A stretch of DNA of 64,000 nt from a virus (taxonomy: Duplodnaviria > Heunggongvirae > Uroviricota > Caudoviricetes), in IMG/VR virus record IMGVR_UViG_3300045977_000087. One strand, given 5' to 3'. The first letter of the stretch is position 1. Each line of letters starts with the position of its first letter. Made by a program: the position numbers. Shown here piece after piece: positions 42,001 through 48,000 of the stretch.

Positions 42001-45000
42001 AGCTAAAGCAAGGAATCTTTGGTTACCTGAAAGGCTACATGATGAGGGGATTAAAGACCCTTCTGATTGTATAGCACAAGACAGCCCTTTTTTCATTAAA
42101 TTTCTAAACACTTTTACATGAATCCTTTAGATAGAATCCATTCAAGTTGGGAGCCTCTTCTTCATTATCTAAACCAAGAAAGCTTCCTACACTTTAAGTA
42201 TGAAATTCTACCCAATATTCTTTATTACCCTGAAGATAGGAATAATATCTTTAGAGTTTTCTCCATGCCTTTACAGGATATTAAGGTAGTAATCCTTGGC
42301 CAAGACCCCTATCATGGTAGAGGTCAGGCTACAGGACTTGCCTTTGCTGTATGTCCAATGACATCTACCCCTCCAAGTCTTAAGTTTATCCATCAGGAAT
42401 TATATGGTATTGAAGAGATACCTGCAATATGGAAAACACTTGAGCACTGGGAAGAACAGGGAGTTTTTCTCCTAAATACAGCCCTTACTGTAGAATCAGG
42501 CAGACCAGGAAGCCATTTAGAATATTGGAATGAATTCATACAACAAGTGATTGCCTACATAGGCAGAAACCATCCATGTATTTGGCTCCTTTGGGGTCAA
42601 AAGGCACAGAGATTTATGTTTAATCTTCCAGCAAAATCTCTATTTAATGTGCAGGGATACAACATGGATACTATTACCCAAATCCCTATCAGTGAAGATT
42701 ACAACTATGTGTTAAGGGCAGCACACCCTGCTGCTGAGGCTTATCAGAGTAATGCTGGCTTCTTAGGGTGTAACCATTTTAAGTTTGCCAATATTATTCT
42801 ACAAAAGCAAAGAAAAAAGATTATTAATTTTTAACACTAAAGTATATGAGTACTGACAGCACAGCTGTAGAGTTAGCCAGAGAGATAACTCTATACAATG
42901 TTAGAGGTGGAAACCTCACAAAAATTCAGTCTTTTGCCAGAACTTGGGGAGAGTTAAAATCAGAGGTCAGAAAAGCTGGCTTTGATACTGACAGGTCCTT
43001 AGTTACTGAGTCAATAAACAAGACTGATTTGGTTAGTGACCTTGCAGTTTTGCCTACAGGTCCTTTCAGATTGTATCTCAGACCTAAGGAGGTGAAGTCT
43101 GGGTTAATGGACAGAAAGGAATTGTTTGCAGAAATCAAGGCCCATATTACAGCTCATCCTGAGGATAAGCAACTGTTTGTAATAAATGGTTGTAATATGA
43201 CTCAGTTATCCACATCCAAACTTCAGGAGTTATATGACTCTCATATTCTCATGGGAAAGGGAAAAGCCACCTCTTCTTCACCTTCAGCTTCTGCCTCATC
43301 TTCTTGTGGTGCTACATCTTCTACTTGTATAGAAGACAAGAAAAAAGACAAGAAGAAGAAGAAAGACAAAAAGAAAGGCAAGAAAGACAAGAAGTCTCAC
43401 TTCAATGAGCCAGCTTGTGACCCTGACTATGACCCAGAGTATGACCCAGAATATGGGGCAGAAGAAGAGGAGTATGAAGAAGATGAATCTCCTGTTATCT
43501 TTGCACAACAAGCTCTTCAGCTTATCCAACAAATTCCTACCTCAAAGGAAAAGGTTAATGCTGAAACAGCTATCCAAAAACTTATTGAGGCCTTGACAGG
43601 TGTAGAGCCTGTTGAGACTGAAGAAGAAATCTGTGCAAGAGAAGCAAGAGCCATCTTTGGGTAACAGTAATTTAAGCCCTGCAGAAATGTGGGGCTTTTA
43701 ATCTTTTGCTTATGAATATAGCCAACAACACCAATGCCTCTGCAGGAATTTGGGCAAATATTATAGAGGGTATAAATCTCAATGGTCTTGCCACAAGTGA
43801 CAGGATACTGAGAAGGTTAGTAAGAAAGGGAAGAGTAGTCTTTGCTGAAGAGTGCTTGAGAGAATCTGACTTGCCACAAATCTTTAATATTGTCCACACA
43901 CTAAAAGAGCATTATGGTGACAACTTTGATGCTACCTTAAGGTATCATGGACAAAATATGTATGAGCTTCAGCTCAAGAGTATTTATCCTAAGGTAACAA
44001 TAAGGAACTCAAAGGACATGGAGATTCACATTACTGACTTAATTGTTGTGCATCCTTTTGGGTGTAGGCTTTATCCTAATGAGAATAAAATCTTTTATCC
44101 TGTAAGATTTCAAGGTACAAGACTAAGTGCCAGTGAACTTCAGTTCCAAAGTAGATATCTTCATAGTCATTTACCCTCTTGGAGTGTAGGTACATCTAAT
44201 AAACTCCACCCTTTTACAACAGGCTCCTTTTGCTTAGGTGCAGATTTGCTTTCAGTAATGCTTACAGAGTTTGAATCAGAGGCCAATATCAATGCTGCCC
44301 CTATCAACTTTGAAAGGTATGAAGCAATGCTCTATGCCATAGACAGTTATGTAAGGTGGGAATCACTTGAAGGAGTACCACATTTTAGGATGCAGAATGT
44401 CAGCAATAAAGGAAACATGGTAACTAGCTTTGCCTCTTATTACACCAAGACCTTTATTGATGCCCTAAAATCAAGAGAAAGAGTTGACTTTGATTTCTAT
44501 ATCAGTGAGGGGAAAATCCATATTGATGCTACAGAGAAAACTATTGACCTTGTTAGGAGAATTATACTTGAAGATATGGATGCAGGAGCAAGAACTAATC
44601 TCTTATGTGTATTTGACCCTTTCACAAGGAGTTATTTCTATAGAGAAAAGACTACTTCTCAGGCATATAACTTAGGTTTATTTGAAGAGAGGGAGCACTA
44701 CTTCACTATCTTTAGAGGAGAGAAAAAAAGATTTAAAATCATCAGGGACAGGCAGGTTAATGTCAAGGTCAAAGATGAAGATTGTTCAATTAATCCATAT
44801 TTTTTAAAAGATGTCTTTAGAGAACTCCAAAATAGACTTCACGAGACACAAGTACTCCAGAGTCGATATAGAGCAAAAAGTAAGATTAGAGATACCAGAC
44901 AAGGTACTTCATAAAATCCAATACTTATGCAAGAATATTCCAAGAGTAGAATGGTCAGGTGCATTATTCTATAGTGTTAAGGGAACCATAAGGGACTTGA

Positions 45001-48000
45001 AGAGATTCAAGATAGTCCTTGAGGATATCTTACCACTTGATATGGGTACTGCTGCCTATACTGAGTACACCTTGGATAAAAGGTTTGTTGACTACATAGA
45101 AGAAGATTTTGACAGAAGGGCACAATGGAAGTTAGGACACATCCACTCACATAATGTGATGAAGGTGTTCTTTTCAGGTGTTGACATGCAGGAACTGTAT
45201 GACAATGCACCCAACCACAATTTCTATCTGTCTTTGATAGTCAATAATTACATGGACATGACTGCCAAGATTGCCTTTATAGGCAGTGGCAAGAAGGAAA
45301 CTGAAGTCTTTGTAGAGGCTCTTGATGAGAAAGGGAAACCTTTCTTAATTGCTAAGGAAGTTGCAACTACCAACATAGAGAATATCTATCTGATAGATTG
45401 TGATATCCATAGCACTAAACCCACTATCAAAGTGGAGAGAGACTTTGCTGAGAAAGTTGCTAAGATTATGGAACCCAAACCTGTAGCACCTGTCACTACT
45501 ATTTATAGAGGAACAGGAGGTATTAATATGCCTACAGAGTATGTGCACCATCCTTTTACCAATCCTAACTTCAGTGTACCAAAAGGGTTTAATCAAGTTG
45601 CAAGAGAAGAGACTTGGAGCCAGACCAGGATACCTTGGACAAGAGAGGATGAGCCTATTGACTTATTCTCTGCACTAAGTGTAGATGGTTTCTTTGTTAA
45701 GTTATTCACCTGCTGGTCTGAAATAAGACCTGAAGATGATGCTGAGGACATAATCTATGGTCTTGAAGACATGGAGATTACTGAACTTGAGATAGCAACA
45801 AAGGCACTTGAAAGATACCCTAAGCTATTTGTAGAACATTTCCAGACTGATAGGATTGAAGATTTCATAGTAGGCACACACAAGATTTTGGATATCCTCA
45901 TAGATTATGTGGGGCCATATCCAAAGATTGCCAAAGCCTATGAAGGTATTGTTAAGATGGTTGAAAAAGTATCTGAAGATGAATACAACAGACCAGAGAA
46001 GCAGGTTTAAGGATGCACCTTGGCTACCAAAGCAAGATGAATCATCCATTATTATTGGAGGTGCAGGAGGAATAGGTTCATGGCTTAATTTCTTCCTGAC
46101 TAAAATTGGATACAAAACCATAGTTTATGATTTTGATACCATAGAGGAACATAATCTTGGAGGGCAACTATTCAGACAAGATGACATAGGGAATCTTAAG
46201 GTAAGGGCTTTACAGAGAATATCTGAAGAGTTCTGTAGTACCTTTATAACTACCTTTGAAGAGGCTGTATCTGAACACAGTATGTCAGGACCATTTATGT
46301 TCTCTGCCTTTGATAACATGAGAGCAAGGGCTATAATGTTCAACAATTGGAAAAAGCATGCTCAACTTATGGAAACTCTTGGGCCTTCAAAAGCTATCTT
46401 CATAGATGGAAGGCTTGAAATAGAGCAACTGCAAGTTTTCTGCGTAACTCCTAAGAACATTGAAAGGTATGAGAAATATCTGTTTGCAGACAGCAGGGTA
46501 GCAGATGCACCCTGTACTATGAAGCAAAGTTCTCATACAGCAGCCATGATAGGTACTCTGATGACCTCTTTCTTCACTAATCATATGACTAACATCTATG
46601 CAGGAGAAGAGCTTAGGGAAGTACCTTTCTTCCATGAGTTTATTGTCCCAATTAATCTCACAACTACAGAGCCATGATAAGGTCTTTTTATCATAATAGC
46701 AGAGTTGAAAATGGAAACCTGGCCACACTGGCCTCAGAGAACAAGGTTGTCCCTCTTTTCAGAGCAATTGGTATAAACAGGACTACTTATCTATATTATG
46801 ATTTTGACCCAAGAAGTGTAACTGAACATGATTATGTTACCAATACAATTAACAGAATCAGGACCTGCTTCTATGGGAGATATCAGAAGCCAATGAGAGT
46901 CACACTTCCTAAGGATGTGAAGGTAATCATTGGTGAAGGCTTTGTCATGAGAGAAAGTGATGGGGCATTTTTATTATTATTGGGTATCAGAAAGAAGTCT
47001 ATTAAGAATACCAGCTGGGAAGCTGAGGACTATGTCCTGTATTATTCTATAGAGCTTATGACTGACACCTTGCTTTCCACCTTGAATAAAAGACTACAAA
47101 AAGAGTTCTTAACCTCAGCAGTTAATGATGGCATAGAAGTAATTATTACTGATTCTAAGACAATTAGAAAAAATGCCTTTGCTAAGGTTATGAGTATCAG
47201 ATTCAACTCAGTAGATATCATGCAGTATTATTTCAAAGAAGTGCTACCCAAGGCATTCTTCTCATCAGGTAGCAACACTGACCTGGTAGAAGCTTTTGAC
47301 CCTGGCTTTTCCCTAATGCCTATTGAAGTACCTACTGCAGAGATTGTTCAGGAAGTAGAAGCAGTTGAGTTTTATGAGGATGATGCCTCACATAGTACCA
47401 CCTTATACTATGAGGAAGATTTCCCAGATGCAGAACCTGCTACACAAAGCTTCAGGATGGATATACTTGACTTAAGTCAGGTTAGTCCTCAGGAAGAAGC
47501 AGAGATTCTTGCAGACTTAACTGAGATAGAAGAAGGCAGAGCAGGTGAGTATGATGGCATCATTGTACCTACCACAGTTATCCTATCTGTTCAAGAGGCA
47601 AATGAAATTATGAATGACCTTGCTCAAATAGGAGCAGGGCCTGCATCATTTGAGGTTGTTCTTGATACAGATTGGAGAGCAGGTCTTGAACCTACTATGC
47701 TTCCACAAAGAACATCAGGTATAGAGTTGATTGATGATACAGAATAACCATTAAAGGTTTTTAAAGTTGATATATAATATTAACCTTAAATAACTTTCAT
47801 ATGGGACTTGGAGCTACTAATAAGAGGAAAGGAAGCAATGCAGAAAGGTATTATGTCAAAATCTTTAAAGAATTAGGTTTTGAGTTCTGCTGTACTGCAA
47901 GATTTGCAAGCAAGAAGCATGATAATGCTAAGATTGACTTGCTATATGTTCCCTTTAATATCCAGATTAAAGCTGGTATCCAGAAAGGTTTAAATCCTGG

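Follow-up and report, generated by a model that had tools for sequence, protein, structure and literature searches.

Does a phage encode a ubiquitin-like conjugation pathway of its own? The question is raised by the virus record IMGVR_UViG_3300045977_000087, a stretch of 64,000 nucleotides of Caudoviricetes DNA, which is called the window here. An initial annotation of the window had read four consecutive genes behind the uracil-DNA glycosylase gene (ung) as a complete set made up of a ubiquitin-like protein (Ubl), an E2, a JAB-type deubiquitinase (DUB) and an E1, arranged as in the bacterial Bil and Bub systems. These genes and a fifth one behind them were named A to E in gene order; the five plus-strand open reading frames (ORFs) listed in that annotation are present, and their starts are backed by the N-termini of homologues in alignments (Table 1). 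Our analysis suggests that A to D probably make up a phage-encoded pathway of ubiquitin-like activation and conjugation that is expressed with the replication genes. The parts identified and the strict co-occurrence of the four genes fit a Ubl cascade; for B we infer the role of the E2, as we do every chemical step of the cascade.

Conserved residues and distribution of the four-gene block

Residue conservation in D was judged in 19-31 homologues. Comparison with Pfam revealed a match to ThiF (PF00899) at E = 3e-13 (49.9 bits, cut-off 28.1) over residues 44-219 of the longer ORF, and comparison with PADLOC revealed matches of the Rossmann part to the Cap2-type 'E1-E2' models, down to 1e-8. The residues found to be invariant or nearly invariant in 19 homologues (R9, G28-x-G30-x-x-G33, D51/D53, N59, Q63, K74, D112-N113-x3-R117, R145, C179 and K182) include a nucleotide-binding loop, an Asp-Asn…Arg catalytic motif and a cysteine downstream of the core. 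This cysteine, C179, lies 67 residues after D112, a spacing that resembles that of C184 in ThiF and C187 in MoeB. The ThiF/MoeB adenylation motif and the APCTMK cysteine, on which the E1 call had been founded, are both conserved, and on these motifs D is solidly placed as a minimal E1-like adenylating enzyme of the ThiF/MoeB superfamily. It is a single domain of about 230 residues, of the ThiF/MoeB/UBA5 type, and by sequence it is not close to any characterised E1. An N-terminal extension of about 150 residues is present in crAss001 gp76 (locus L002, 6539-7696); the window, phage FpV4 and most metagenomic homologues are without it.

The assignment of C as a JAB/JAMM metallopeptidase is likewise solid at the level of its motif. 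The JAMM/MPN zinc site that had been proposed is canonical (E47…H112-x-H114-x7-S122-x2-D125) and invariant in 16 diverse homologues. Pfam Prok-JAB (PF14464) was matched by 13 of these 16 members, all singly below the curated cut-off (best E = 5e-4), and the window protein matched the PADLOC JAB model at E = 1e-3; a profile hidden Markov model (HMM) of C gave only noise against PDB sequences. The JAB domain occupies residues ~25-200, and the C-terminal half (~200-399) is without family assignment.

Analysis of A revealed an N-terminal domain of about 86 residues, a helical stretch (~87-135), a low-complexity linker rich in Lys/Asp/Glu and a short conserved C-terminal helix. Residues 5-132 matched phrog_15560 (E = 5e-25), and a Pfam scan of the N-terminal domain gave no match. 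A search for homologues with full-length A returned a single match, swamped by the low-complexity tail, and a search with A(1-137) returned none. The pattern of the N-terminal domain is ubiquitin-like, with a β-hairpin, a helix ('TWGELK…'), further strands and a closing 'LPxGDFxLFLxPxKxKSG'. Among A homologues G35, K84 and G86 are invariant, seven other residues (R12/T33/L37/L62/A67/P70/P80) are nearly so, and an internal K-[S/A/G]-G was present in every homologue examined, where it forms the end of an N-terminal domain 74-90 residues long. The ORFs of seven loci (L021, L025, L027, L028, L029, L041 and L042) end 1-3 residues past this glycine; in the other loci an extension of variable length follows. 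Because the glycine is invariant and the short-tailed versions match JAB-processed precursors (BilC/BilA, BubCD/BubAB), A resembles a Ubl precursor. We consider this assignment probable, with K84-S85-G86 as the predicted site of both JAB cleavage and E1 activation and with a fold that is presumably β-grasp.

Two features previously ascribed to A need correction. The glycine at its very C-terminus (G272) is not conserved, homologues ending in GY, YR, IQ or FVD, and was rejected as the conjugation site for that reason; the conserved glycine is the internal G86. Of the ubiquitin-like pattern reported twice, the N-terminal copy stands as a sequence pattern; the second, in residues 87-135, does not, this region being mostly helical in a low-confidence model.

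For B the evidence is modest and structural in kind; it suggests an E2-like protein that belongs to a new family, with a UBC/UEV/RWD-like core at residues ~50-235 followed by a large C-terminal half without family assignment. Alignment of 141 homologues revealed S154, H155, C176, E219 and S220 in all members, G178, G223 and P225 in 140 and H153 in 129; N101, G137, R139, E146, Y151 and F175 are, with H153, G178, G223 and P225, near-invariant. The cysteine of the E2 signature that had been claimed therefore holds, as C176 (141/141); the 'HPF' histidine (H168) and the 'YP..PVRF' stretch (131-135) are not conserved. No residue at the position of H168 exceeds 20 of 141, the positions of 'YP..PVRF' are equally variable, and 'HPF' was rejected as an equivalent of the HPN motif.

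An AlphaFold 2 (AF2) model of B built from 13 sequences had a mean predicted local distance difference test score (pLDDT) of 76.7; large parts of residues 21-80, 111-140 and 181-210 scored above 90, and the loop that holds C176 (141-180) scored 52-77. The modelled topology runs from α1 through a β-meander and a loop to α-helices. The model places C176 in the low-confidence loop that connects the last β-strand to helix 181-195, which would correspond to the post-sheet loop that carries the catalytic cysteine of E2 enzymes. Among the best 60 structure matches of the model, more than 30 were UBC-superfamily chains (among them Tsg101/Vps23 UEV, BRE, a dozen eukaryotic E2s, UBE2O, UFC1, Atg3, the Cap2 E2 domain, Citrobacter BubB and several RWD domains), typically with 105-120 aligned residues at 3.5-4.5 Å. 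Foldseek with the same model found nothing significant in the PDB and only uncharacterised crAss-like proteins in BFVD, and the profile HMM of B against PDB sequences gave only noise.

The four genes form a conserved block. In Flavobacterium psychrophilum phage FpV4 the order is primase, uracil-DNA glycosylase, gp53, gp52, gp51, gp50 (annotated as 'thiamine biosynthesis protein') and gp49; in crAss001 it is primase, gp79, gp78, gp77 ('metalloprotease domain'), gp76 ('ThiF') and gp75, and in cr111_1 and DAC15 A-B-C-D follows the primase in an arrangement like that of crAss001. A scan of IMG/VR with the B alignment yielded 36 loci, with A-B-C-D after the primase wherever the sequence suffices. 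An HMM of the A domain detected an A homologue upstream of B in every locus covering that region; in the loci examined, genes A to D were never found apart and co-occurred wherever coverage allowed. An exhaustive profile search with the B core recovered 3120 representatives (50%-identity clusters) at E <= 1e-3, of which 2720 at E <= 1e-10. The residue conservation is beyond what chance would leave, judged by its persistence across clusters at <= 50% identity with the four genes co-occurring.

No relative of B was found in 185,579 bacterial and archaeal species, searched as one genome each with a single usable pattern. A scan of the same species genomes for the E1 revealed five contigs binned into metagenome-assembled genomes (MAGs) that carry phage-module genes, three of them with the full module; the only other match, a distant E1 from Myxococcales, belongs to an unrelated cluster. 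Within the reach of these searches, the module is viral. This distribution bears on a possible role in counter-defence, where the same chemistry would compete with or reverse host Bil, Bub or the Cap2/Cap3 pair of type II cyclic oligonucleotide-based antiphage signalling systems (CBASS): the JAB enzyme would strip host Ubl from phage proteins, or the tag would disable host defence proteins. Host Ubl systems do attack phage structural proteins (PMC10557695, PMC11601596), and the detection of the module on viral contigs only, with no B homologue under the one pattern used, would agree with such a role. We consider it quite improbable, however, since even in widely diverged phages the module keeps its place in the replication block and is not a variable accessory island, and since similarity to BilA/B/C, Bub and the Cap2 E2 is not detectable, only D matching Cap2-type models and, weakly, BilD.

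Three of the MAG contigs deserve description. Complete phage-type primase-A-B-C-D modules occur on a 41-kb contig of a Nitrososphaerota MAG (L039) and a 33-kb contig of a Promethearchaeia MAG (L042), which are most likely crAss-like phage contigs mis-binned into archaeal MAGs. The Myxococcales E1 lies on a 159-kb contig (L044, 5235-11693) with an FHA protein, a PEGA protein, two unknowns and a 585-aa JAB protein; it is a 410-aa ThiF-type E1 with a zinc ribbon and shares just 27% identity with the phage E1. This cluster may be a different, uncharacterised E1/JAB system.

Inserts were also observed in the module genes. In L025 (7393-8549) and L029 (7387-8544) the JAB gene is split right after H-x-H by an insert of about 1.1 kb that carries, on the opposite strand, a 293-aa ORF with LAGLIDADG-type motifs; L036 (7121-7558) has an insert of about 0.4 kb at the same site, and in L009 (8314-9580) a 268-aa LAGLIDADG-type ORF stands between the JAB gene and a 5'-shortened E1 ORF. 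Self-splicing introns with homing endonucleases, known for their density in crAss-like phages, probably account for these inserts. The presence of LAGLIDADG inserts in the JAB gene of two loci and beside the E1 gene of a third suggests that these genes are under strong constraint.

A proposed cascade and the explanations that compete with it

In the cascade proposed here, A would be made as a precursor that C cuts after K84-S85-G86, which in the window phage would release a Ubl of about 86 residues with a free C-terminal glycine and a C-terminal fragment of 186 residues. D, probably a homodimer like ThiF, MoeB, UBA5 or the E1 domain of BubCD, would adenylate G86 with ATP, and the Ubl would then move onto C179 in the crossover loop. 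From there it would be passed to C176 of B, a diverged UBC-fold protein, and joined to lysines of phage or host proteins; both cysteines of this putative relay are invariant. C may also reverse the modification. The C-terminal halves of B and/or C may select targets, a task suggested for that of B because no E3 is present. Judging by its fixed place beside the primase, the module may be active during replication.

Several results weigh against this reading, and they concern A, B and D. The AF2 model of A, made from a two-sequence alignment, is of low confidence (pLDDT 44), with a β-hairpin and a helix at residues 14-43. The profile HMM of A gave only noise against PDB sequences, and hhalign found nothing against ubiquitin, NEDD8 or SUMO. 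Against MoaD/ThiS, with verified reference sequences, the hhalign alignment was in register and not significant (E = 0.06, probability 0.9%); it pairs the 'P-x-G-D-F-x-L-F-L-x-P' strand with 'L-T-D-G-D-E-V-A-F-F-P-P'. The closest solved sequences to D are MccB, PaaA and TcdA, at weak E-values, and these are not protein-conjugating E1s. ThiF/MoeB/Uba enzymes have the motif N-L-x-R-Q; the D family has N-[L/M/I]-G-G-Q at residues 59-63, so that the phosphate-contacting arginine appears to be replaced by glycine throughout the phage E1 family. For B, the E2 call found no backing by profile: E2 models (UQ_con, Prok-E2_A-E, BilB and Cap2 E2) matched 0/18 members in Pfam and 0/18 in PADLOC, and hhalign of the 141-member alignment against UBE2D2/I/N/L3, verified as genuine E2s, gave a probability of 0.7%. 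B is without an HPN motif, its conserved histidines (H153/H155) lie 12-28 residues upstream of the cysteine, and the invariants H153, S154, H155, E219 and S220 could equally form a metal site or a hydrolase centre.

The alignment to MoaD/ThiS, the sole in-register profile alignment that A gave, bears on the possibility that A(1-86) is a sulfur carrier like ThiS, MoaD, CysO or TtuB. D would then adenylate G86 on the way to a thiocarboxylate that donates sulfur to a cofactor, nucleoside or DNA modification required by the phage while it replicates, with C maturing or recycling the carrier, as Mec+ does for CysO, and B being a sulfur-accepting or modifying enzyme and no E2. Such a role would suit a D of minimal ThiF/MoeB type with its cysteine presumably in the crossover-loop region as in ThiF, a module set amid genes of nucleotide and DNA metabolism, and the links of bacterial JAB enzymes to ThiS/MoaD-type systems (PMC1779556). 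Yet scans of the flanking genes and the annotations of FpV4 and crAss001 revealed no rhodanese, no cysteine desulfurase and no PP-loop ATPase, the terminus is K-S-G and not G-G, the long C-terminal extension is unusual for such carriers, and the modelled B resembles UBC/UEV/RWD folds, which are not known as sulfurtransferases. A sulfur-carrier function is rather unlikely on this balance.

A further explanation is a device for processing or assembly that cleaves and does not conjugate, as proposed for the λ tail assembly proteins I and K. The C-terminal part of A would be chaperoned or tagged by a Ubl that can be cut off, B would be a Cys/His enzyme or a non-catalytic UEV/RWD-like adaptor with no part in thioester transfer, and D would adenylate a different carboxylate, as MccB and PaaA do. 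Phage pairs of Ubl and JAB without E1 and E2 are known (λ TAPI/TAPK; PMC1779556), the nearest solved relatives of D, MccB and PaaA, adenylate peptide C-termini, and the invariant H/S/H/E/S residues of B are unlike those of canonical E2s. What makes this explanation unlikely is that in the seven short-tailed loci A is a Ubl plus 1-3 residues and leaves no cargo to chaperone; five of these loci have intact B, C and D, and the remaining two, L025 and L029, have a JAB gene interrupted by an insert. The invariance of C179 in D and C176 in B, as expected of a relay, and the fact that the four genes were never apart in the loci examined also argue against it.

Ubl activation and conjugation remains our preferred explanation of the module. 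The wider proposition, that crAss-like phages run their own Ubl-conjugation cascade, fixed in the replication programme and built on a new E2 family (H-S-H…F-C-x-G…W-E-S-L-E-G-x-P) and a minimal E1, seems to us evenly balanced. If it is true, Ubl conjugation would be a tool of phages too, beyond its use as a bacterial weapon against them, and its targets could be host proteins, phage proteins or even non-protein acceptors. The module would imply that phages direct the tagging of proteins while they infect Bacteroidota, in a lineage that includes relatives of the most abundant human gut viruses. The four-gene set, fixed beside the primase in a large phage lineage, is a large unannotated family: in deposited records the E1 is misnamed a 'thiamine biosynthesis protein', the JAB protein is at best a 'metalloprotease domain', and A and B are 'hypothetical', a label borne by all 3120 cluster representatives of B. 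The new E2-like family and the new minimal E1 would widen what is known of the evolution of ubiquitin signalling. Cultured phages that carry the module, and whose hosts are also in culture, are crAss001 (host Bacteroides intestinalis), DAC15 (B. thetaiotaomicron) and FpV4 (Flavobacterium psychrophilum).

Layout of the window and neighbouring genes

Judged by its protein relatives, the window is from a crAss-like phage of a Bacteroidota host. Protein comparison puts it nearest, among isolates, to the FpV4 group of Flavobacterium psychrophilum phages (Fipvunavirus), with 56% identity for the E1; Bacteroides crassviruses of the Steigviridae/Asinivirinae (crAss001, DAC15, cr111_1 and cr106_1) come next. 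Megablast of window positions 40000-50000 against deposited phage records revealed no nucleotide-level match. All five proteins A to E match PHROG families without known function.

The replication context described for the module, directly downstream of ung, was confirmed, with helicase, AAA_24 ATPase, primase and uracil-DNA glycosylase on its 5' side and exonuclease and deoxynucleoside monophosphate (dNMP) kinase on its 3' side. The genes had been called consecutive and overlapping, which is correct for B/C (104 nt), C/D (32 nt) and D/E (4 nt, ATGA) and incorrect for A and B, which are separated by 41 nt. The overlap of B and C measures 60-125 nt in relatives (L001 5743-5867, L002 5298-5359 and L003 7076-7197), and the JAB frame is +1 relative to B. 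Because the overlap is long and conserved, both frames seem to be coding across it.

The coupling of the fifth gene to D is borne out by the ATGA overlap; its conservation is restricted to the FpV4-like subclade, homologues of E being detected only in FpV4-like loci and in L021, L026 and L039. Across clades the genes that follow D form at least three sequence clusters, those of other clades being unrelated by hhalign (probability <1%), and E was rejected as a universal fifth component. Pfam and PADLOC scans of E gave no match. Its membership of the module is uncertain.

Two further observations concern the window at large. Behind the dNMP kinase gene lies a gene for a 1027-aa protein with a hydrophobic, signal-peptide-like N-terminus, an HYR-like domain and a C-terminal sorting domain of the type IX secretion system (T9SS; Por_Secre_tail, E = 1e-6). 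A sorting domain of this type is consistent with a Bacteroidota host; a phage-encoded T9SS substrate is unusual. GC skew and AT skew flip sign together at ~16000 and ~56000 of the window, which is consistent with switches of gene orientation between genome modules.

Table 1. Positions of genes, domains and conserved sites in the window (residue numbers refer to the respective protein)
Feature	Position	Strand	Remark
DnaB-like helicase	37658-38929	+	upstream replication block
AAA_24 ATPase	38948-39694	+	upstream replication block
low-complexity Ser/Thr/Glu-rich ORF	39725-40195	+	between ATPase and next replication gene
primase homologue	41087-42121	+	
uracil-DNA glycosylase	42118-42834	+	Pfam UDG E = 6e-12
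gene A, 272 aa	42846-43664	+	predicted Ubl precursor
Ubl-like domain of A, residues 1-86	42846-43103	+	ends in K84-S85-G86 (43095-43103)
Lys/Asp/Glu-rich linker of A	43250-43480	+	low complexity
gene B, 402 aa	43706-44914	+	E2-like; likelier start ATG 43712 than TTG 43706
conserved centre of B	44162-44239	+	H153-S154-H155 (44162-44170), F175-C176-x-G178 (44228-44239)
candidate thioester cysteine C176 of B	44231-44233	+	invariant
second invariant motif of B	44357-44380	+	W218-E219-S220-L-E-G223-x-P225
overlap of B and C	44811-44914	+	
gene C, 399 aa	44811-46010	+	JAB/JAMM metallopeptidase
motif codons of C		+	E47 44949-51, H112 45144-46, H114 45150-52, S122 45174-76, D125 45183-85
gene D, 232 aa	45979-46677	+	minimal E1-like adenylating enzyme
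P-loop of D, G28-G33	46060-46077	+	
N-[L/M/I]-G-G-Q of D, residues 59-63	46153-46167	+	
D112-N113…R117 of D	46312-46329	+	
C179 of D	46513-46515	+	APCTMK
gene E, 357 aa	46674-47747	+	clade-specific accessory
PD-(D/E)XK exonuclease homologue	48316-49467	+	3' of module
dNMP kinase	50314-51210	+	3' of module
protein with T9SS sorting domain, 1027 aa	51306-54389	+	

Comparison with known systems

In prokaryotes, sets that combine E1, E2, DUB and Ubl have hitherto been reported as defences of bacteria against phages (Bil, Bub and type II CBASS), and the only phage-borne relative found in the literature is the Ubl and JAB pair TAPI/TAPK of λ (PMC1779556). No literature linking crAss-like phages with ThiF, JAB or a ubiquitin-like system was found, although earlier recognition is possible. 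The likeness to Bil and Bub that had been claimed for the module holds for gene order and logic and fails for E1 architecture, the residues of B, gene fusions and, with respect to Bub, serine chemistry.

The closest parallel in organisation is type II BilABCD (CEHH/6C operons; Chambers et al., PMC10557695). The order Ubl, E2-like protein, JAB DUB and E1 is the same in A-B-C-D, as had been stated, and both systems are without an E3; exposure of the Ubl glycine depends on the JAB enzyme in Bil and is predicted to do so in the phage set, and a cysteine-based relay from E1 to E2 is expected. The components differ: BilD is a multidomain E1 (IAD-AAD-CYS) with a zinc site (PMC10557695), whereas D is one domain of about 230 residues with its cysteine presumably in or near the crossover loop, and BilB shows the pattern Cys…Glu…His…His (PMC10557695) where B shows His-Ser-His…Cys…Glu-Ser. 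Unlike their Bil counterparts, B (402 aa) and C (399 aa) are each lengthened by a substantial C-terminal half. The PADLOC models of BilA/B/C gave no match to the module and that of BilD a weak partial match at 2.5e-3. Bil operons are found in bacterial defence islands, whereas the phage module is found in a replication operon.

The module resembles type I Bub (6E.1; BubAB/BubCD/BubE; Ye et al., PMC11601596) in an extended Ubl that a JAB enzyme cuts after a conserved glycine, as BubCD does with the BubAB fusion immediately after that residue (PMC11601596) and as is predicted for C with A, and in a minimal E1 of homodimer type, to which D probably belongs. Bub fuses Ubl to E2 and JAB to E1, whereas A to D are four separate genes; Bub also works through Ser/Tyr oxyesters without catalytic cysteines (PMC11601596), whereas the cysteines of B and D are both invariant. 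A Pfam scan of gene E revealed no match to BubE/DUF6527.

The Cap2/Cap3 pair of CBASS resembles the module in combining an E1-like domain, the PADLOC 'E1-E2' models of which match D, with a JAB partner. In Cap2 the E1 and the E2 are fused, whereas in the phage module they are separate. Cap2 activates the C-terminus of the CD-NTase itself and there is no separate Ubl. Genes of cyclic-nucleotide signalling are absent here.

TAPI and TAPK of λ/T1 (a Ubl, and a JAB joined to NlpC/P60; Iyer et al. 2006, PMC1779556) are phage-encoded like the present set, and TAPI has a β-grasp domain ending in a conserved glycine, as is presumed for A, followed by a linker and a C-terminal domain, with the adjacent JAB enzyme predicted to cut at the glycine. 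The pair lies in the tail module and is without an E1 and an E2-like partner, whereas the present set has both and lies in the replication module.

The ThiS-ThiF, MoaD-MoeB and UBA5 systems share with the module a single-domain E1-like enzyme, a small carrier ending in glycine (in the module, the predicted product of cleavage) and a conserved cysteine after the adenylation core. Compared with ThiS-ThiF and MoaD-MoeB, the phage carrier ends in K-[S/A/G]-G and not G-G and has a long C-terminal extension, and UBC-like and JAB proteins are added. No sulfur-transfer genes were found among the scanned neighbours, and the arginine of 'NLxRQ' is glycine in D.

None of the tests run on its sequences makes the module a member of Bil, Bub or Cap2/Cap3; it would nonetheless work like these systems, as a set of Ubl, E2-like protein, JAB enzyme and E1.

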